A program made the translations under genes and the position numbers. From the NCBI GenBank assembly GCA_964424025.1, contig CAYRHG010000072.1, positions 646-64,645 of the forward strand: a stretch of 64,000 nt of DNA. Direction: 5' to 3'. A model generated the notes under the pieces. It did not search any database and had not been told where the DNA came from. It worked only from the letters and a program-made list of their open reading frames with translations. Numbering within the stretch: position 1 is the first letter of the stretch; each line of letters opens with the position of its first letter. Source of the stretch: an uncultured Dehalococcoidales bacterium. GTDB taxonomy: Bacteria > Chloroflexota > Dehalococcoidia > Lucifugimonadales > Lucifugimonadaceae. Shown piece after piece: positions 6,908 through 29,189 of the stretch.

Positions 6908-8650
6908 TTATGCAGCGCGCTCGACGTTCACCGTCACGACGTCGACGCCGTGATACTTCTGGTGCCTCACTGAACTGGCGTAGTGGCGCAACAACCGGAA
7001 CGAAATCTCTCGGTCGTCCGCAATATCCGGCGTTTCGCCCAAATAAGACAACTGATCTTCGATGTTGTCCCCTTCAGAGGCAGCAACGAACTCGAGCTCG
7101 ATTTCACGTCCCACCGCGTGCGCTGCCACTATCAAACGCCTTGATCCTTGACTTTCCGTCTCGTCAATCGGCCCCGACAAGAGAGTGTTCAATGTCTCCT
7201 CCCCCACTAATGCGATGCGATTCTGTCCGGCTTCGTTCCAACCAGATGACGAAGCGAACCCCCGCAAGAACTCACTGAGTTCGGGCAAGGCACCTTCGTT
7301 CAAGTCCGACCTCAATCGTTTACGCCTCGGGGCGGTGATCTCCATGAACAACATCGCGATGATGGCGACCACCGCGCCGGACGTCATACCGTTGCCGAGC
7401 AAGACACCCACGAAGCCGTCGCCCAGAAGTTCCGGGAAGATCCATTGGTTTTGGAAACCTACGCCGACCCAGAACGAAAGGCCTACGACAAACGCCTTTC
7501 GGTAATCGAGGCCGTCTTGAATGACGATCCTCATGCCCTGCAGGAACAATAGCGCTATGAGCACCAGAATGTATGCCGCGGCCACCGGCGCAGGAATGGC
7601 GATGATGAGCGCGGTGACCTTTGGCAAAAAGGCAAGTGCGAGGAAGACGATACCGATGACGACGCCAACTCGCCGCGCGGCGACGCCGGTAACTTCGGCC
7701 AGGGAGATGCTAGTGGAGTAAGTAGTGTGCGGCAGCGTACCCAAGATGCCTGAGAGGAGGTTCCCAACACCGTCTGTGTTTAGTGCGCCTTGGACAACCC
7801 GAAAATCAGTCGCTTTGGGTTGGCGTCGTGAAACCCTTTGGATCGCGACACCGTCTCCGATAGTCTCGATTGCTCCGATGATGGTGACGATAATGAACGC
7901 CGGCAGCAACGCCCAGAACTCGACGCCTGGCGTGACGTCCAACCCGGGCCAGGAACTGAACGGCGCGCCGATCCAATCTGCGTCTCCTACACCGTTGATG
8001 TCGTAGAGACCGAACGGTGCCCCCACGATACATCCCACCACCACGCCTATTGCAGGTGACCACAGGCGCAGCCATGAGGGTCCCCTGAGCACCAAAACGC
8101 CCACCGTAATGAGTGTTGCGAGAACTGCGGCGGGAGCAGCAAAGTCGTCGGTGCCGTCCGGCACATCCTTAAACGAGTCGAAAAGTATTTGCACCACGGT
8201 CGCGGCTATGAGCATGATGACGGTACCGGCAACCGTCGGTGTGAAAATCCGACGTAGCCATGAGAGCCGATAGGCAAGTAAGAACTGGAAGAGAGAGGAG
8301 ATGACGATGAGGCTCGCCATAGTCGCGGGTCCGCCTTCGACTAATGCGGCGACGCACACCGCGATGAAGGCGGCCGACGTACCCATCACTAGTACGTAAC
8401 CAGATCCGATCCGACCGAATCGGACAGCTTGCAAGACCGTTGTCAACCCGCTGACGATCAGCGCCGCGAACACGCCCCATGTCAAATACGACTCCGGCTG
8501 ATCGGCAATGCGAGCCACGATGACAACCGTCAAAACGATCGGCGTCACGATCAAAGCCGCAGCTTGAAGCCCTGAACCTACAGCAATTGCAGCCGGCGGG
8601 TTCTCCTCCGGTTCATAACGAACCGATTCATTGACAGGTGATTGGGCCAA
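6908..8650 (-). CDS. nucleobase:cation symporter-2 (xanthine/uracil permease) family transporter with ~150-aa C-terminal soluble extension
   Basis: 580-aa ORF with many predicted TM helices. The TYSTSISLAEVTGVAARRVG segment resembles the NCS2 signature region. The last ~150 aa are hydrophilic. Confidence 0.7.
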   Translation of the reverse strand: MAQSPVNESVRYEPEENPPAAIAVGSGLQAAALIVTPIVLTVVIVARIADQPESYLTWGVFAALIVSGLTTVLQAVRFGRIGSGYVLVMGTSAAFIAVCVAALVEGGPATMASLIVISSLFQFLLAYRLSWLRRIFTPTVAGTVIMLIAATVVQILFDSFKDVPDGTDDFAAPAAVLATLITVGVLVLRGPSWLRLWSPAIGVVVGCIVGAPFGLYDINGVGDADWIGAPFSSWPGLDVTPGVEFWALLPAFIIVTIIGAIETIGDGVAIQRVSRRQPKATDFRVVQGALNTDGVGNLLSGILGTLPHTTYSTSISLAEVTGVAARRVGVVIGIVFLALAFLPKVTALIIAIPAPVAAAYILVLIALLFLQGMRIVIQDGLDYRKAFVVGLSFWVGVGFQNQWIFPELLGDGFVGVLLGNGMTSGAVVAIIAMLFMEITAPRRKRLRSDLNEGALPELSEFLRGFASSSGWNEAGQNRIALVGEETLNTLLSGPIDETESQGSRRLIVAAHAVGREIELEFVAASEGDNIEDQLSYLGETPDIADDREISFRLLRHYASSVRHQKYHGVDVVTVNVERAA

Positions 8651-21279: not shown

Positions 21280-21421
21280 TGTGGTTTGAGAAATTGATCC
21301 AGATGTTTCGAGGTATTAAGTCGCCGTAGCGAGCCTGAATCCAAAAGGTACACAGACACGTTCGTTTGGAGCTGGCATTCGTGAGAACCACGATGCTAGC
21401 GCGTACTACGCTCGTCAATTG

Positions 21422-22231
21422 ATGCCAATCGGCGTTGACGCTGATCTCGATCCCAAACCTCGTCCCGATAACTCGTTGCCGGAACATGCTCGCAACCGGT
21501 TTTTCTGCAAGAGCAGCGAAAATATGGGGGATCTGCCGGACCGTTGTGTGCAACTAATGGTTACGTCGCCCCCGTATAACGTGGGCAAGGATTATGACGA
21601 CGATCTGTCAATGGTCCAGCATCTGGAATTGATACGTAGTGTCATGAGCGAAACATTCCGCGTACTTGTGGACGGTGGAAGGGCCTGCGTAAACGTCGCC
21701 AACATCGGACGTCGACCCTACATCCCGCTTCATGCATACGTCATACAAATCGCCGCCGCGACCGGGTTTTTCATGCGCGGAGAAATCATCTGGGACAAGG
21801 GAATGAGCGGTTCTTCAACCGCGTGGGGCAGTTGGATGTCGCCTGGGAACCCGACGCTTCGCGACACGCACGAGTACATCCTCGTCTTTCAGAAACCGCC
21901 ATTTGGCAGGAAACGTCCTGATGGACGCAGCGCGACGATCTCGCGGGACGATTTTCTCGAATACACGAAAAGTCGATGGACGATGGCTCCGACATCGGCG
22001 AAGCGCGCGATGCACCCGGCACCGTTCCCAGTCGAATTGCCACGAAGATTGATCGACCTATATACGTTTTCGGGTGAAGTAGTGTTGGATCCTTTCATGG
22101 GGACAGGAGCTACAGCGATCGCTGCGAATGAACTCGGACGAGTTTTCGTCGGTTATGAGATATCGGATGCATACGTTGATATCGCTTCCGATCGACTAGC
22201 CGATACGTCGTCGAAACCTGCAACCGAGTGA
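21422..22231 (+). CDS. site-specific DNA methyltransferase, beta-class N4/N6 family (SPPY motif suggests N4-cytosine)
   Basis: ORF 21419..22231. Motif IV TSPPY comes before motif I DPFMGTGAT (beta-class order). No restriction endonuclease gene is adjacent. Confidence 0.85.
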   Translation: MPIGVDADLDPKPRPDNSLPEHARNRFFCKSSENMGDLPDRCVQLMVTSPPYNVGKDYDDDLSMVQHLELIRSVMSETFRVLVDGGRACVNVANIGRRPYIPLHAYVIQIAAATGFFMRGEIIWDKGMSGSSTAWGSWMSPGNPTLRDTHEYILVFQKPPFGRKRPDGRSATISRDDFLEYTKSRWTMAPTSAKRAMHPAPFPVELPRRLIDLYTFSGEVVLDPFMGTGATAIAANELGRVFVGYEISDAYVDIASDRLADTSSKPATE

Positions 22232-22923: not shown

Positions 22924-24135
22924 GTGATGCCAACGAGTCAGGAATACAAGGATCTAGAAGCCAAGTACTACATGCAAGTGGTGCGAAGGTTCCCGCCGGT
23001 GCTCGTCAGGGGCGAAGGCTCGCGAGTGTTCGATAACGACGGCAAGTCCTACCTCGACTTCACCGCTGGATGGGCGGTGTTGAACATGGGCCATTCGCAT
23101 CCCGCGGTCACCGCCGCCATAAGTGAGCAGGCCGGAGCGATTATGCAGATGTCCAACCTGTTCTACACGACGCCGCAGCTACCTCTGGCCCAGTTCATCG
23201 TCGAAAACTCGGACGTCGACCGTGTGTTTTTCTGCAATTCGGGCGCGGAAGCCAATGAAGGTGCGTGCAAACTGGCTCGCAAGTATGGGCGGCAGAACTT
23301 GGACGGCGCGTACGAGATAATCACGGCGCTGGATTCATTCCACGGTCGAACTCAAGCGATGATGGCGGCGACGGGGCAACCTCATTACCAGGACAACTGG
23401 ACGCCTCTGATGCCCGGGTTCGTGAACGTGCCCTACAACGACTTCGATGCCATCGCCGGGGCATACGTTGAGGGGCGTACCTGCGCAGTGTTGCTAGAAC
23501 CCGTCCAAGGCGAAGGCGGAGTCAATGTCCCCGACGAAGACTACTTGATAAAGGTCCAAGACTTCTGCAAAGAAAAGAACATTCTTTTCATGTTGGACGA
23601 AGTGCAGACCGGCATGGGTCGGCTAGGCACGGTGTTCGGTTACCAAAGATTCGAGGGCGTCGAACCCGACGTCATGACGCTTGGCAAGGCATTAGGCTCA
23701 GGCGCGCCGCTCGGAGCATTTGCGTGCAAGGAGTTTTGCTCGGTATTGGAGCCTGGTGATCACGGATCTACGTTCGGAGGCAACGCTCTGACAACGGCTG
23801 CCGGCGGTGCTGGCGCGAAGGCTTTGCTGGATGAAGACGGCCCGGGTCAGGCGATGCGCAACGGCGAATACCTGACGGGCAAATTGAACGCTCTACGGGA
23901 AGATCACGAGGTGATCACAGAAGTCCGAGGCATGGGCATGTTGATTGGTGTTGAGATGAAGGAAGAGTTGTCCGCAGCCATAGTGGCGGACTGTGCGGCG
24001 AACGGATTATTGCTGAACGCGGTCCGTCCGAACATGCTCAGATTCATGCCTCCTCTCAACGCGAGCACCGAGGAGATCGATGAAGCGATCGGAATCTTGG
24101 ATTCTGCGCTTGCGAAATCTACCGGCCGCAGTTGA
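22924..24135 (+). CDS. argD: acetylornithine aminotransferase (class III PLP aminotransferase)
   Basis: 403-aa ORF. DEVQTGMGRLG and TLGKALG (PLP lysine) motifs. Other arg genes lie nearby. Confidence 0.85.
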   Translation: MMPTSQEYKDLEAKYYMQVVRRFPPVLVRGEGSRVFDNDGKSYLDFTAGWAVLNMGHSHPAVTAAISEQAGAIMQMSNLFYTTPQLPLAQFIVENSDVDRVFFCNSGAEANEGACKLARKYGRQNLDGAYEIITALDSFHGRTQAMMAATGQPHYQDNWTPLMPGFVNVPYNDFDAIAGAYVEGRTCAVLLEPVQGEGGVNVPDEDYLIKVQDFCKEKNILFMLDEVQTGMGRLGTVFGYQRFEGVEPDVMTLGKALGSGAPLGAFACKEFCSVLEPGDHGSTFGGNALTTAAGGAGAKALLDEDGPGQAMRNGEYLTGKLNALREDHEVITEVRGMGMLIGVEMKEELSAAIVADCAANGLLLNAVRPNMLRFMPPLNASTEEIDEAIGILDSALAKSTGRS

Positions 24136-24327
24136 GCGGACTTAACTTGGCGACCGATTCAGTCGATCGACGTATGTAAATTCCCGGAGCCGCTCTGTGA
24201 ATTGCGTTTAGCCCTTAATGGTTAGAACGACTACGAGTTACGTTGCGAACAGTTGATTGTCAACGGTCGCGTATTGGCGGCGGAGCATACCGTCATGCGC
24301 CCCAGGAAATGCGTCATTCACTCCAAA

Positions 24328-24795
24328 TCAGTCAAATCGGGGGTGCCTGCGCCCGGCGTTCTCCTTGACCCGCGGGTGATGTTCGCGCAGGGCGTAGAAA
24401 CCTCGCCGGTGTGGACGTACAAACCTCTTGTCGCGGTTCATAATCGCGTTGAGCGCAGCTTCGGGTGACTTTTCCGGGAGGTGGCCGCCACGTTGCACGA
24501 CTTCATGGGCAAGAAGTTTGTAATGCATCTCCTCGCCGTTCTTTTCCCTGAGGATCTCGATCGCGACGTCGCGGGGATCGATCGTGTACCGTGGAGCGCT
24601 GTTCGGTACGTCAATGGGTTGACCATCGTCGATCGCGAGCAGAGACCTCAACGCAACGACTTCAGCATTGATCTGAGACCGTTCCAATTCGAGATCTTTG
24701 ATATTTTCGTCCGCAACCTTCAACCGAGATTCCAATTCACCCAATTGGCGCTCAGCCTCTTGTCGAAACCCTGCTTCCAAGTGGTGTTTGTTCAT
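24328..24795 (-). CDS. coiled-coil protein with C-terminal HARE-HTH-like winged-helix domain
   Basis: 155-aa ORF. N-terminal ~55 aa is heptad-like (LGELESRLKVADENIKDLELERSQINAEV). The C-terminal segment DVAIEILREKNGEEMHYKLLAHEVVQRGGHL..KSPEAALNAIMNRDKRFVRPHRRGFYALRE resembles the HARE-HTH / RpoE-delta N-terminal fold pattern. Confidence 0.6.
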   Translation of the reverse strand: MNKHHLEAGFRQEAERQLGELESRLKVADENIKDLELERSQINAEVVALRSLLAIDDGQPIDVPNSAPRYTIDPRDVAIEILREKNGEEMHYKLLAHEVVQRGGHLPEKSPEAALNAIMNRDKRFVRPHRRGFYALREHHPRVKENAGRRHPRFD

Positions 24796-24839
24796 ATGCG
24801 ATTCCTTTCCCGGACCACTAAACCTACATAACGATCAAA

Positions 24840-24868
24840 ATATTACATTCAATATAGAGTCCTGTCAA
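24840..24868 (-). promoter_or_regulatory. near-consensus sigma70-type promoter for the HARE-HTH gene
   Basis: On the minus strand: TTGACA (24868-24863), exactly 17 nt, TAATAT (24845-24840). About 45 nt upstream of the ATG, with GGAAAGGA just before the start. Confidence 0.55.
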
Positions 24869-24910
24869 GGACAATGCGCGATGACAGTAATGTGCGATTA
24901 ACTCGCAAGA

Positions 24911-27628
24911 TTAAGGATGACTTGTCTCCCTTGTCCAATGGCCACAATCGGTGGATACAAATCCGACATCAGATTCAGTTAATGTAACCTCGATCCGCCC
25001 TCTACCTCCACCGCTTGCGGTCACTTCTCGCTGATCATGGCTAAAGCCAGTTACTTTCCACCACTTGCACTTGGGCACAGGGTAACCATCTATGAACGGT
25101 TCTATTGACACATTTGATGCGTACGTGCCCGCTACAATGTCTGCACCGACGCGACGGACGCCATCTTCGAAATCCGAATACGGCCCGATTTTCAAGGCGA
25201 TCTCAATGTTGCGCCATAATCCGCAACCGTGTGTCACGAAGCCGACGTCGTCCGCTTCGATCGTCACGATCCATCGGTCGTCGGATTCGCCTTCCGCTAT
25301 GGTTTCATCCGAATCTCCCGAGAATCCAGAAACGCGACGCCAACGACATCCGCCACCTCGACGGGGTACCGAATAGTAGGTTCCAGGTTCGATGTGAACA
25401 CCCACTACGTACGATCCGCCGCTGAACCGCGAAGGTGGCGGTTCGACCGGTCCAGATCCTTCCGCAACGAATACGTTCCATTCACCACAACCGTATGTCG
25501 CGAATCCGACATCGGTATCACGAATAGTGACGATCTTCTGACCACTTGCCTTGGTTTCCACGATCGTGCCTGAAGTCCAAGTGAAGTCCGAAAGTCGCCG
25601 CCATTTGCACGTCGAACGTTGAGCATCCGACACGATGTACGTGCCCGGATCGATGTCAACGCCGACTTCGTACGTGCCGTCAGAAAACGCCGGCATCATT
25701 CGCGTACTCTCGCGTAAGGGATTCCATTCACCACATCCGAAAGACCGAAAACCCGCGTCGGAAGGAAGGATCGTAGCGATCGCCTGACCTTCGCTGGCGT
25801 AGATGTTCAATCGTTTGAAGGGATCGCCATCGAATCCAGTGAGTCGGCTCCAAAAGCAGATTTCTCCCTCAATAACGGAAGAGACGTAGGTTCCGGGCGC
25901 AATGTCACGACCTACGATATACACGCCGTCGTCGAATTTAGTATTTCGCGCGACGTTTTTGAAATCCGAAACATTTGGCACGAGTTTCCAATCTCCGCAA
26001 CCGTCTGAATAAAATCCAACGTCAAAAGATTGCACAGTTGTGATCGAGCGACCTACAGCTAATTCACTCGTCACAAAAGCGGATGGTTCACCATCAAAAC
26101 CGGATAAACGACTCCAAAAGCAAGTGCTACCTTCTGGCACGTCGGCGAAGTACGTACCGGCCGGAATTTCCGATTCAACGGCCCATGTACCTCGACCAAA
26201 CATCTCCCTTAGATCACGGTCTTTAACGGGATCGAATACTTCCCAATCCCCGCAACCAAAGCTTTCGAACACCGCGTCGTGGGGTGTGATTTGGGTGATG
26301 TTTCGGCCAACCGGGTTTCTAACCGCTAATTGCGCCGCGTCGGATCCATCGAAATCCGAGAGGCGTCGCCACCAACACCGGCCTTGTTCATCCCCAGGGG
26401 AAACGTAGGTCCCGGGCGCTACGTGGACGTTGACGATATGCTCGCCTTCGCCGAAAGTCTTGTGCGCCTCCAGATTTGTTGCATTTGACAATGATGTCCA
26501 CGAGCCGCAGTCCACCGAGCGAAAACCAACTGTCTCAGGCGTCAATTCCACGATGCCGCGGACGACTCCTGTGCCCGATGCTATTATGTCGGCGGGTCTA
26601 CCGGCGAAACCGCGGAGAGTGAACCACCGGCAATACCGATTTTCGGCAGCATCTGCAAAATAAACGCCGGGGTTCACATCCGAGCCAACGATCAACGTCC
26701 CCACGCCGATTACACCGTCGGGTACGGCATCAACGTTCGCAGGTTCCAACGGTCTCCAAATGCCGCATCCATCGCTGTGAAAGCCGGTATCACTCGCAAA
26801 AATCGTGGCGACCTGCCGCCCTTTCGAGACATAACCTCCGCTGTTGTCAGGCGACGTATCTCCAAACGGTGCGGTTCTGAACCAATCACAAAATCCGTTG
26901 CCCGCATCGGCAATGTAGGTTCCGGGTGCGATGTCGATGCCGACCAGGTACGATCCATCGCCGAAATGCGTCAACGGTTCCTCGGCAAATCCAGCGTCGC
27001 GTCGATTCCAAGTGCCGCATCTGATTGAGTAGAAACCCGCGCTATCCGGTTTGATCTCCGCGATCGGTTCGCCGGTTTTCCACCATGTGATCAGATTGCT
27101 CGACGCTGGTTGATGCATGAAATCATCTACCGTGAACCAAACGCATCGGCCGTCGTTGCTGGTCGAAGTGTAGATTCCAGGTCTGATATCGACACCGACT
27201 TCATGCATACCCTCTTCGAACCGGATTGAAGGCGGCTCCGAGACCCGATCGAACCGTGGTTTCCAAATCCCACAACTCGATGTTTCGACGACGTTGTCCG
27301 AACTAGTGATGGTGACGATGGCTCTTCCGATAAACGTTGGGTTTCGGGTCTCTTCGTCGATGTCGGTAATACCGACGGAACAAATTCCGCTTTCGATTTC
27401 GGCGACATAGGTTCCTGGAGCGATATCGATACCGACGCGATGTGTGCCGTCGGCGAAGTCGCTAGGGCCGATCGCTGCGTCGGCCTCGGATGCGAATCCG
27501 GCGATGCCGCCGAGTAGGACAAAAGCGATCAATGCAAAGCGAATGATGTGACCCCCGCCTCGTCGCGGTAGTCCAACGGTTCGAATGTGTGACTGTGGGA
27601 ACAAAACAGATACGCGCCGTTCATCCAT
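24911..27628 (-). CDS. secreted protein composed of ten tandem ~72-80-aa two-cysteine repeat modules (family unknown)
   Basis: ORF 24911..27676; probable start ATG 27628. Signal-anchor-like IIRFALIAFVLLGGIAGFASEADA is followed by 10 repeats with consensus F.DG.Y.VG.DI.PGTY...(5-9)C.W.RL.GF.G...(10-20)I.TI...D.GF.S.GCG.W. Confidence 0.7.
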   Translation of the reverse strand: MDERRVSVLFPQSHIRTVGLPRRGGGHIIRFALIAFVLLGGIAGFASEADAAIGPSDFADGTHRVGIDIAPGTYVAEIESGICSVGITDIDEETRNPTFIGRAIVTITSSDNVVETSSCGIWKPRFDRVSEPPSIRFEEGMHEVGVDIRPGIYTSTSNDGRCVWFTVDDFMHQPASSNLITWWKTGEPIAEIKPDSAGFYSIRCGTWNRRDAGFAEEPLTHFGDGSYLVGIDIAPGTYIADAGNGFCDWFRTAPFGDTSPDNSGGYVSKGRQVATIFASDTGFHSDGCGIWRPLEPANVDAVPDGVIGVGTLIVGSDVNPGVYFADAAENRYCRWFTLRGFAGRPADIIASGTGVVRGIVELTPETVGFRSVDCGSWTSLSNATNLEAHKTFGEGEHIVNVHVAPGTYVSPGDEQGRCWWRRLSDFDGSDAAQLAVRNPVGRNITQITPHDAVFESFGCGDWEVFDPVKDRDLREMFGRGTWAVESEIPAGTYFADVPEGSTCFWSRLSGFDGEPSAFVTSELAVGRSITTVQSFDVGFYSDGCGDWKLVPNVSDFKNVARNTKFDDGVYIVGRDIAPGTYVSSVIEGEICFWSRLTGFDGDPFKRLNIYASEGQAIATILPSDAGFRSFGCGEWNPLRESTRMMPAFSDGTYEVGVDIDPGTYIVSDAQRSTCKWRRLSDFTWTSGTIVETKASGQKIVTIRDTDVGFATYGCGEWNVFVAEGSGPVEPPPSRFSGGSYVVGVHIEPGTYYSVPRRGGGCRWRRVSGFSGDSDETIAEGESDDRWIVTIEADDVGFVTHGCGLWRNIEIALKIGPYSDFEDGVRRVGADIVAGTYASNVSIEPFIDGYPVPKCKWWKVTGFSHDQREVTASGGGRGRIEVTLTESDVGFVSTDCGHWTRETSHP

Positions 27629-27965
27629 GAACACGTGCGGTTGGTCGAAAAAAAGGATTCTGTTGCGCCAGCGCACTGAAGCGCCACGTAATCGGATATC
27701 GTATTCGATCTCGATCGCTCCGGCGATTCAGTCATCTACATGCGGCTAATCCTGATGCCGGAAACACAGGGATGCAGGTGAGATTAAATCGAGAAACCTA
27801 GTGTCCCGCCGATATCCGAACAATTCGTCCAATTGGCGATCTGCGAAGATCGAGTCGCTCAATTGCGACTACGACGTGTCGGTGAGCCAAAACTTCGACA
27901 CCGAGCGATCGTGTATGCCCCGGTGAGGGCGTCCGGCGATCCGATCCCATCAATCGATTTCGGAA

Positions 27966-29189
27966 TCAACGCGCGTCGCGCATCGTTTGGCGTTTCATCT
28001 GTGTCCGCGCAGGGAGACTGTAGATGTCGATGAAACCAACAGCGGCTGCGTGATCGAATTCATCCTCTGTGGAGTAGGTCGCCAGTTCGAAATCGTAGAG
28101 CGAATAGGGCGAGCGCCTGCCGGTGACGGTGGAAGAACCTTTGAAAAACTTCACGCGCACATCGCCCGACGTATATCGCATCACCGAAGAGACGAATGCG
28201 TCAAGGTTTTCACGCAATGCGGTATACCAACGCCCGTCATAGACGAGATCCGCATAAAGCAGCGCCAGTTGGGCTTTGACGCGCTGCTGGTCCCGTGAGA
28301 GCGTAGCGGTTTCGAGGGCAGACAGCGCTTGGTAAAGCACGACGGCTGCCGGCGTCTCGTACACCTCTCTAGATTTGATGCCGACGAGACGGTTTTCCAG
28401 GTGGTCCACCCTGCCAACACCGTGGGAACCGGCAAGGAGATTAAGTTGCTCGATGAGGTCGACCAGCTCCAATTTTTCGCCGTTGAGCGCCACCGGAACG
28501 CCTTCTTCGAAGCCGATCTCCACCTCTTCCGGTTGATCAGGAGTCTGATCAGCGGGTTGCGTCCATGAGAACGCATCTTCGGGCGGCGCGAACCACGTGT
28601 CTTCGAGGTCTTCGCCTTCGATCGCGAGTCCCCACATGTTGCGGTCGATCGAATAGACGCGTTGATCATCGCCCACTTCGCGCAGCTCAAGGCCGGCTCG
28701 GTTCGCGAACTCTTTCTCTTCGTCGCGCGTCATGTCCCACTCGCGAGCGGGCGCGATAATGCGTAGTGGTTCGCCGTGTGCTGCCAGTGTCTTGATGCCA
28801 GCGTCGAATCGAACCTGATCATTGCCCTTCCCAGTACACCCATGCGCTACAGCAACGGCGCCCACTTGACGTGCGGCTTCGACGAGTTTTTTCGCCATCA
28901 ACGGTCGTCCAAACGCGGTTGAGAGCGCGTACGCCGATTCGTACATTGCGCCAGCTTTTAAGCCTGGCATGATGAAGTCGCGGGCAAACTCATCCTTCAC
29001 ATCCCAAACGAGGGAATCAACCGCACCAGCCGACGCTGCTCGTTCGCGAACTCCTTCGAGTTCGGGCCCGCCGCCTATGTCGACGGTCAGCGTGACGACG
29101 TCGAGGCCATAGTTTTCACGGATCCAAACGATGGAGATGGTCGAGTCCATCCCGCCGCTGTAAGCAAGTACGCACTTATCCCTAGCCAT
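27966..29189 (-). CDS. argG: argininosuccinate synthase
   Basis: 407-aa ORF. AYSGGMDST N-terminal ATP-PPase motif, colinear ArgG pattern throughout. Confidence 0.95.
   Translation of the reverse strand: MARDKCVLAYSGGMDSTISIVWIRENYGLDVVTLTVDIGGGPELEGVRERAASAGAVDSLVWDVKDEFARDFIMPGLKAGAMYESAYALSTAFGRPLMAKKLVEAARQVGAVAVAHGCTGKGNDQVRFDAGIKTLAAHGEPLRIIAPAREWDMTRDEEKEFANRAGLELREVGDDQRVYSIDRNMWGLAIEGEDLEDTWFAPPEDAFSWTQPADQTPDQPEEVEIGFEEGVPVALNGEKLELVDLIEQLNLLAGSHGVGRVDHLENRLVGIKSREVYETPAAVVLYQALSALETATLSRDQQRVKAQLALLYADLVYDGRWYTALRENLDAFVSSVMRYTSGDVRVKFFKGSSTVTGRRSPYSLYDFELATYSTEDEFDHAAAVGFIDIYSLPARTQMKRQTMRDAR

Follow-up and report, generated by a model that had tools for sequence, protein, structure and literature searches.

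The stretch of DNA analysed here, called the window below, comprises 64,000 nucleotides of contig CAYRHG010000072.1 (assembly GCA_964424025.1, positions 646 to 64,645), from an uncultured Dehalococcoidales bacterium of the phylum Chloroflexota. On its minus strand lies a gene encoding ten tandem modules of 70-84 amino acids (aa), which follow a signal peptide and are accompanied by no other domain. The gene is real and under purifying selection. Both its hidden Markov model (HMM) match and its motif place the product in the Rv1352 family. The features of the gene are listed here, residues being numbered on the 905-aa form that starts with the ATG at 27628.

24911..27628, minus strand: coding sequence (CDS) of the ten-module protein, 905 aa from the ATG at 27628
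24911..27676, minus strand: longer CDS form with a GTG start, 921 aa, used by the database copy P0001
27476..27628, minus strand: predicted export signal, residues 1-51, from the sequence, the orthologue N-termini and a helix in the AlphaFold2 (AF2) model
27260..27469, minus strand: module 1, residues 54-123
27005..27232, minus strand: module 2, residues 133-208
26753..26977, minus strand: module 3, residues 218-292
26495..26722, minus strand: module 4, residues 303-378
26240..26467, minus strand: module 5, residues 388-463
25985..26212, minus strand: module 6, residues 473-548
25721..25948, minus strand: module 7, residues 561-636, the one modelled singly
25700..25720, minus strand: linker 7/8, residues 637-643, of variable length among orthologues
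25475..25699, minus strand: module 8, residues 644-718, top match to the NCBIfam profile
25211..25438, minus strand: module 9, residues 731-806
24932..25183, minus strand: module 10, residues 816-899, with an 8-9-aa insertion ahead of its first Cys

All modules share the skeleton F-x-(D/E)-G-x-(Y/H/W)-x-V-G-x-D-I-x-P-G-T-Y ... C-x-W ... D-x-G-F-x-S-x-G-C-G-x-W. A (P/A)G(T/I/V)Y motif is found in 10 of 10, and each contains exactly two Cys. A preliminary description of this DNA had proposed ten tandem two-cysteine modules, and this organization is confirmed; the 20 Cys of the protein all lie in modules and none outside them. Judging from the invariance of these residues, one disulfide probably forms within each module. 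When 86 diverse modules are compared, G11, G22, C34 and C75 are invariant and the other columns are not. The modules are also rich in aromatic residues, some of the Y and W being conserved; W accounts for 3.0% and F for 5.6%.

Pairwise identity among the ten modules is 25-44% (mean 35%) at the protein level and 38-53% at the DNA level. In addition, Tandem Repeats Finder did not detect a DNA-level tandem repeat in the array. Because of this low identity and of this negative search, the array is old and diverged rather than an assembly artefact. The positional orthology of the modules (410 of 410, see below) also led to rejection of a DNA repeat or an assembly artefact. Finally, the idea that the module itself arose by internal duplication, each half being a hairpin with a C-x-W, was rejected, as alignment of the half-profiles with hhalign gave a probability of 3%.

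The N-terminal region starts with a basic n-region (PRRGGGHIIR), followed by a 16-residue hydrophobic h-region, FALIAFVLLGGIAGFA, and by the c-region SEADA; cleavage by signal peptidase I is predicted between ADA and the next A. In all the orthologue N-termini, a small-x-small site (A/S/V-x-A) comes after a hydrophobic segment, and the AF2 model has a helix at 27-43, with low values of the predicted local distance difference test (pLDDT) on both sides. The preliminary description had seen a signal-anchor-like segment at this place. The hydrophobic segment is indeed present; its anatomy looks like that of a cleavable Sec signal peptide rather than that of an anchor. Because this anatomy is conserved in the orthologues, the proposal that the protein is exported is supported. 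Export by the Tat pathway was considered and rejected: no Tat consensus comes after the RR of the n-region, and the orthologues do not keep this RR, which makes Sec export more likely. At the other end of the protein, the C-terminal tail, RETSHP, shows no anchor motif, LPXTG or transmembrane segment. The mature chain would have ~854 aa and a mass of 92.7 kDa; it would be acidic, with an isoelectric point (pI) of 4.65. As for the start codon, the choice between GTG and ATG (positions 27629-27676) is ambiguous, an obvious Shine-Dalgarno sequence being found at neither. In orthologues, 20 to 75 residues precede the first module.

Family membership and predicted fold of the module

The NCBIfam profile NF053833.1, 'Rv1352/Rv1906c domain-containing protein', matches the protein with 487.3 bits against a cutoff of 25 (E = 9e-150), in 10 stretches. 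The corresponding Pfam entry, PF27111.1 'Rv1352', is not in the local Pfam copy; its match is a precomputed record, available for the identical protein P0001 and for all 53 homologues. The family motif, G-x-(Y/F)-x-V-G-x-D-I-x-P-G-x-Y, C-x-W and C-G-x-W together with two Cys, is found in 10 of 10 modules. The module, for which the preliminary description could name no family, is matched in all its ten copies by NF053833.1, which corresponds to PF27111, and had already been catalogued. A Pfam domain therefore exists; functional characterisation does not come with it, and the Rv1352 family has no solved structure. The preliminary description could not match the module to a characterised adhesin, lectin or enzyme domain, and this agrees with the Pfam scan.

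In that scan, the sole match in the local Pfam copy is to X25_BaPul_like (PF22058), with 25.9 bits against a gathering threshold of 27, and it straddles a module boundary. Kinship with X25 starch-binding domains was rejected, since the score of the whole protein is sub-threshold and none of 86 single modules matches at E <= 1. No Pfam match to Ig-family domains (Big, fn3, PKD) and no LPXTG were found on the protein, and its repeats are diverged and fixed at ten; it is not an LPXTG or Ig-like repeat adhesin. SLH and CWB2 are absent from its Pfam matches, so that anchoring of the surface-layer (S-layer) type is not found either. Altogether, the protein belongs to none of the X25/carbohydrate-binding module (CBM), SLH/CWB2, LPXTG/Ig-repeat or cupin families.

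The founding member, Rv1352 of Mycobacterium tuberculosis, is an antigen that has not been characterised and is predicted to be secreted or to reside in the outer membrane; its cloned open reading frame (ORF) has 312 bp (PMC9521936). It is induced ~1200-fold in nutrient-starved M. tuberculosis (PMC3670895). It has been found in culture filtrate, is SignalP Sec/SPI-positive and is O-glycosylated (PMC7053730). Its mature N-terminus, ETGEQFPGDGVFLVGTDIAPGTYR, has been verified by mass spectrometry (PMC2483986). This segment carries F-x-G-D-G-x-F-x-V-G-x-D-I-x-P-G-T-Y, the motif that opens all ten modules of the window protein. Rv1906c is a hypothetical protein that belongs to a cholesterol-growth gene set and also appears in a computational prediction of host mimicry.

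The AF2 model of module 7, built with the 86-module alignment, is a seven-strand all-beta domain (pLDDT 88.5, predicted TM-score (pTM) 0.78). A Foldseek search of this model against the PDB gave no usable relative, the best E value being 0.09 and the TM-score at most 0.46. The top matches are loosely cupin-like (E >= 0.09, TM-score <= 0.46, root-mean-square deviation (rmsd) 5-12 A). Membership in the cupin/jelly-roll group was rejected, as none of these superpositions is significant. No X25 or CBM structure appears among the PDB matches of the module. Sequence searches of the PDB returned 0 matches for the whole protein and 0 matches at E <= 10 for the 86-module profile. The full-length AF2 model has a pLDDT of 84.3 and a pTM of 0.61. 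Such a pTM is high for a ten-domain chain, and the model is consistent with a defined packing of the modules against each other. Foldseek matches of the full-length model in the PDB have TM-scores of at most 0.11 and are meaningless. Comparison of the module with predicted viral structures (BFVD) retrieved small actinophage proteins, with TM-scores of 0.66-0.81 and rmsd of 1.9-3.8 A. Several of these are annotated as lipoproteins.

The family is large. A profile search of 1.84 billion representative proteins (50%-identity clusters) retrieved 8,186 clusters with E <= 1e-3, of which 4,077 reach E <= 1e-10. The 150 best matches have from 2 to 11 modules per protein. One- and two-module proteins of 100-160 aa are common, and P0048 has 13 modules. 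The architectures are diverse. In P0121, a Ser/Thr kinase is followed by a transmembrane segment (345-372) and by four modules. The module is also fused to trypsin-like proteases (Trypsin_2), with or without DUF4352, as well as to PKD, RTX and AMIN domains. It is found together with SLH, with three CWB2, with Big_2, fn3 and SH3_3. In yet another arrangement, a zinc ribbon precedes a transmembrane segment and the modules. From the architectures examined, the Rv1352 module appears to be extracytoplasmic across the family. Its distribution carries the signature of a ligand-recognition or binding module, because its partners are extracellular, anchoring or membrane-spanning and because catalysis or anchoring is supplied by the other domains.

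Two further multi-module members are only distantly related. In P0053 (1053 aa), which contains 38 Cys, five modules are joined to RCC1/beta-propeller repeats. P0075 (961 aa, L036 8039-10924) has 11 modules; in its neighbourhood are LysM and CarboxypepD_reg-like genes and large ORFs without a Pfam match. For P0053 and P0075 alike, the longest contig recorded has 66,231 bp, and the two genes may lie on one contig.

Phage members were also found in PHROGs, where the module matches phrog_14498 at E = 1e-30 and phrog_17706, a 'membrane protein' of the moron category. One of them, gp46 of Mycobacterium phage Sparky, is 41% identical to modules 8-9 and has the PGxY and CxW motifs and two Cys. Its gene lies between those of the integrase and the immunity repressor, on the repressor strand. 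Since this is the usual site of lysogen-expressed accessory or defence genes, gp46 is a probable lysogen-expressed accessory gene. The protein is annotated with 93 aa (VSPQT..., NC_026597.1). An upstream in-frame ATG gives 166 aa (L039 3722-4222 (+)), and the longer ORF would consist of an N-terminal transmembrane helix, IALVGVAAIAVAVGVAVGFAIA, a Thr-rich linker and one Rv1352 module. The annotation probably starts too far downstream.

Fixed order of the modules and conservation of the locus

Full-length orthologues of the window protein were retrieved from the protein database down to 41% identity. The count of modules does not vary: 41 of 41 have exactly ten modules, with at least 20 Cys. 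The survey of copy number suggested in the preliminary description thus gives a constant value; shorter database entries carry fewer modules. In an alignment of 39 orthologues, 20 of 20 Cys are invariant. Moreover, when each module is compared with those of other species, its best match has the same index in 410 of 410 cases. Modules of the same index are on average 50-65% identical, compared with 33-39% across indices. The view of an old, diverged array, expressed in the preliminary description, is borne out by this positional orthology and by the invariance of the Cys. Residues conserved in an index-specific manner are located mainly between strand 3 and strand 5 (columns 35-60). Module 3, for example, has WFRTAPFG..PDNSGGY, module 5 has AVRNPVGRNIAEI and module 8 has DFTWTSG.

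The linkers are essentially fixed as well. They have 9, 9, 10, 9, 9 and 12 residues through module 7, then 12 and 9 after module 8. Linker 7/8 is the sole variable one, with 6-45 aa among orthologues, and it is acidic and polar when long. Because only its length varies widely, linker 7/8 is a probable hinge, with seven modules on one side and three on the other.

The ratio of nonsynonymous to synonymous substitution rates (dN/dS), calculated by the Nei-Gojobori method for three orthologues with unsaturated dS, is 0.166-0.174; the range given against orthologues is 0.15-0.17, or about 0.16. For the flanking argG and argD, the values are 0.016-0.029. The gene is therefore constrained, yet it evolves several-fold faster than its housekeeping neighbours. 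A rate above that of argG and argD would fit a surface protein, since surface proteins typically evolve in this manner.

The surroundings of the gene in the window include the following features, given for context.

27966..29189, minus strand: argG (argininosuccinate synthase), conserved upstream neighbour
24328..24795, minus strand: HARE-HTH protein, 155 aa, directly downstream of the repeat gene
22924..24135, plus strand: argD (acetylornithine aminotransferase), conserved convergent neighbour
21419-22231, plus strand: N6/N4 DNA methyltransferase near plsY, without an adjacent restriction enzyme

Related loci were searched in one genome per species of the GTDB with an alignment-seeded scan, a single-protein query having found no locus. 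The scan gave 33 loci, of which 32 are full-length, with 40-79% identity. All 32 are found in Dehalococcoidia/SAR202/Chloroflexi metagenome-assembled genomes (MAGs), where the gene is single-copy and at a fixed place. The gene order is argG, the repeat gene and, where present, the HARE-HTH gene on one strand, facing argD, plsY, the DNA methyltransferase and a GFO/IDH oxidoreductase on the other. Two of the 32 loci deviate: argG was not found in L023, and it is inverted and farther away in L030. The latter (CBDATG010000003.1, match of 3009 bp) is the most divergent orthologue locus, with 40% identity, and the displacement of argG indicates that the conserved gene order is no longer kept at the margin of the clade. 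The HARE-HTH gene is detectable in only 13 of the 32 loci, and is therefore not an obligatory partner of the repeat gene. Among the 32 genomes is SAR202 bin127 (MPNN01), which lives in symbiosis with the sponge Aplysina aerophoba and whose genome has 3.3 Mb and a guanine-cytosine (GC) content of 56.35% (PMC5649159). At least one documented sponge symbiont thus carries the locus.

The 33rd locus (L035 108-581) is a partial match with 33% identity in an Acidimicrobiia MAG (CAYFYE010000057.1). This match and the members from mycobacteria, from actinophages and with SLH or CWB2 suggest that the Rv1352 family is concentrated in monoderm-type lineages.

The preliminary description also considered that the gene has a lower GC content than its neighbours and interrupts an arginine-related context. 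The first statement holds in part: the gene has a GC content of 0.543 and the window mean is 0.561 (56.1%), which places the gene at the 9th percentile of 2.7-kb windows. This deficit of 1.8 points is small, and a foreign origin is not supported. The second statement is not retained. Because argG and argD are on opposite strands (minus and plus, respectively) and because their arrangement with the repeat gene is conserved across the clade, no operon is interrupted. Horizontal acquisition or insertion of the gene was rejected in view of the small GC deficit and of synteny kept in 32 genomes.

Other searches around the gene gave little. The module HMM found no second match besides this gene in a six-frame translation of the window. 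No RNA family of Rfam was detected at E <= 0.1 in the flanks (positions 24000-28200), and a scan of the flanks for promoters and terminators gave background level only. The rest of the window is ordinary chromosome, with trpE/trpF, pheT, moeA, peptidases and transporters. Housekeeping genes (argG, argD, plsY) surround the orthologues, and the neighbourhood offers no functional clue.

Some variations concern the neighbours themselves. The methyltransferase beside plsY is present in 31 of the 32 related loci with 67-83% identity; in L006 the match is just 26% and on the other strand. The sequence of L020 stops short of this region. L001, from the same genome as L003, has an extra cassette inserted there, which encodes a restriction enzyme of the CfrBI type and two further methyltransferases. 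In L002 (same genome as L008), a 183-aa ORF without a Pfam match (7387-7938) is located between argG and the repeat gene, where the window has a 337-bp non-coding gap.

Possible functions of the array

Considering these properties, we propose with moderate confidence, slightly better than even, that the protein is exported by Sec, stabilised by disulfides and devoid of catalytic activity, and that it serves outside the cell for binding or as a scaffold, in an adhesin-like manner. In this model, Sec export would yield an acidic mature chain made only of ten seven-strand beta modules, every one of them pinned by a disulfide. The chain would form two stiff rod segments, modules 1-7 and modules 8-10, joined by a hinge. 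The rod would either stay exposed on peptidoglycan-less SAR202/Dehalococcoidia cells, at least some of which live in sponges, or be released from their surface. Each module would then offer its own conserved surface, around strand 3 to strand 5, to a polymeric or multi-site partner, possibly the envelope of the cell itself or the surrounding matrix. Sponge-associated SAR202 genomes lack the genes of peptidoglycan synthesis (Bayer et al., PMC6306507), and surface proteins would thus make up much of the outer face of the envelope. Disulfides, rod-like rigidity and binding function are all features that we infer.

Several points weigh against this proposal. No conserved neighbour gene points to a pathway, and distant paralogues are in unrelated contexts. 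No SLH, CWB2, LPXTG or C-terminal transmembrane anchor was detected in the protein, which may simply be released from the cell. The pTM of the full-length model was obtained from a 39-sequence alignment and is suggestive only. Finally, the geometry of the disulfides, the shape of the rod and the exposure of the conserved residues at the surface are predictions.

It may also be imagined that the protein is a structural component of the envelope. In this case, it would be a self-assembling S-layer-like coat or sheath that replaces the wall in peptidoglycan-less SAR202, a possibility that we regard as rather unlikely. The position-specific conservation would then be attributed to lattice and inter-module contacts and not to ligand binding. 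The lack of peptidoglycan genes in the sponge symbionts of SAR202 would fit a coat. So would the fixed number of modules and fixed linker lengths, the relatively high pTM of 0.61 and the occurrence of the gene as a single copy, always at the same place, in all the related genomes scanned. Like many S-layer proteins, the protein is acidic (pI 4.65), all-beta, exported and of ~93 kDa. However, S-layer proteins usually have few Cys or none, whereas 20 are present here, and the protein has no anchoring domain. Elsewhere in the family, the module is the cargo of SLH- or CWB2-anchored proteins and not the lattice-forming part, and its use as a kinase ectodomain suits sensing or binding better than a lattice.

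The richness of the modules in aromatic residues, including the conserved Y and W, leads to a quite improbable alternative, the capture of substrates. The protein would be a multivalent array binding carbohydrates or organic matter, similar to SusE/F or to CBMs, and would concentrate polymeric dissolved organic matter (DOM) for uptake. Sponge Chloroflexi have been proposed as DOM degraders (PMC6306507), and MFS transporters are encoded nearby in the window. The weak X25 match of the whole protein (25.9 bits against 27, hence sub-threshold) goes in the same direction; yet this signal is lost on single modules (0 of 86) and Foldseek yields no CBM of the PDB at a useful score. Moreover, no glycoside hydrolase or binding-protein-dependent transporter is conserved beside the gene, and the conserved aromatics are possibly mere core residues.

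An enzymatic or toxin-like activity of the modules themselves, although conceivable for a fold without a solved relative and with Asp and Arg conserved in all modules (GxDIxPG, CxWxR, DxGF), is very improbable, because no polar residue is invariant across the family (just G, G, C and C over diverse modules), which leaves no catalytic constellation, and because a 75-aa module repeated ten-fold is atypical for enzymes and catalysis in the fusions comes from other domains (kinase, trypsin-like protease).

Significance and comparison with known systems

The present results do not overturn current understanding, the domain having been catalogued before. They bring together, within one family, starvation-induced antigens of M. 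tuberculosis, kinase ectodomains, Firmicutes-type surface-anchored proteins and accessory genes of prophages. The structure of one module and its ligand would annotate thousands of proteins. Ten diverged copies in a fixed order throughout a clade constitute a built-in data set, in which the residues that determine the fold can be separated from those that determine specificity, and this makes the SAR202 protein an unusually informative member. It is also a candidate for a surface determinant in a lineage that is abundant and uncultivated and has sponge symbionts among its members.

It is tempting to go further and to imagine that the Rv1352 module is an unrecognised class of envelope- or matrix-binding fold, used at the surface by monoderms and their phages, and that the SAR202 array is the main coat or adhesin fibre of the cell. 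This view is speculative and we consider it unlikely. If it were true, ten specialised copies would have been frozen into one rigid fibre, serving as the main coat or as an adhesin to, for example, the sponge matrix. A similar target in the envelope would be recognised by the single-module versions, namely Rv1352 of starved M. tuberculosis and the membrane-anchored accessory proteins of temperate actinophages, the latter for instance to block superinfection.

Among known systems, the protein resembles the tandem beta-sandwich adhesins (Big/Ig-like and 'extender' repeats) by its signal peptide, its small beta domains, its short linkers and the absence of a catalytic domain. A repeat of a large adhesion protein (6xi3) even appears among the weak Foldseek matches of the full-length model. 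However, there is no homology (TM-score <= 0.1), and the window protein has no LPXTG. The repeats of adhesins usually vary in number and hardly differ from one another, whereas the modules described here are 25-44% identical, individually conserved and fixed at ten.

Another analogy, functional only, is with PASTA, SH3b and LysM, which monoderm bacteria use outside the cell for sensing and targeting. Like these, the Rv1352 module occurs as stand-alone secreted copies, in tandem arrays, in ectodomains of transmembrane Ser/Thr kinases and as an appendage of secreted proteases and wall-anchored proteins. In contrast, its sequence and its predicted fold are unrelated to theirs. A muropeptide ligand is unlikely in SAR202, because these hosts are devoid of peptidoglycan genes.

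The closest relationships are within the family itself. With the small membrane proteins and lipoproteins of actinophages, the window protein shares the module and a matching predicted fold. The phage versions have one module behind a transmembrane or lipoprotein anchor, whereas the window gene is chromosomal, belongs to the core of its clade and encodes ten modules. With Rv1352 and Rv1906c of M. tuberculosis, it shares the HMM family, two Cys per module and, as predicted from its signal peptide, Sec export. The 312 bp of Rv1352 fit a single module, whereas the protein of the window, which comes from another phylum, the Chloroflexota, has ten modules in a fixed order.

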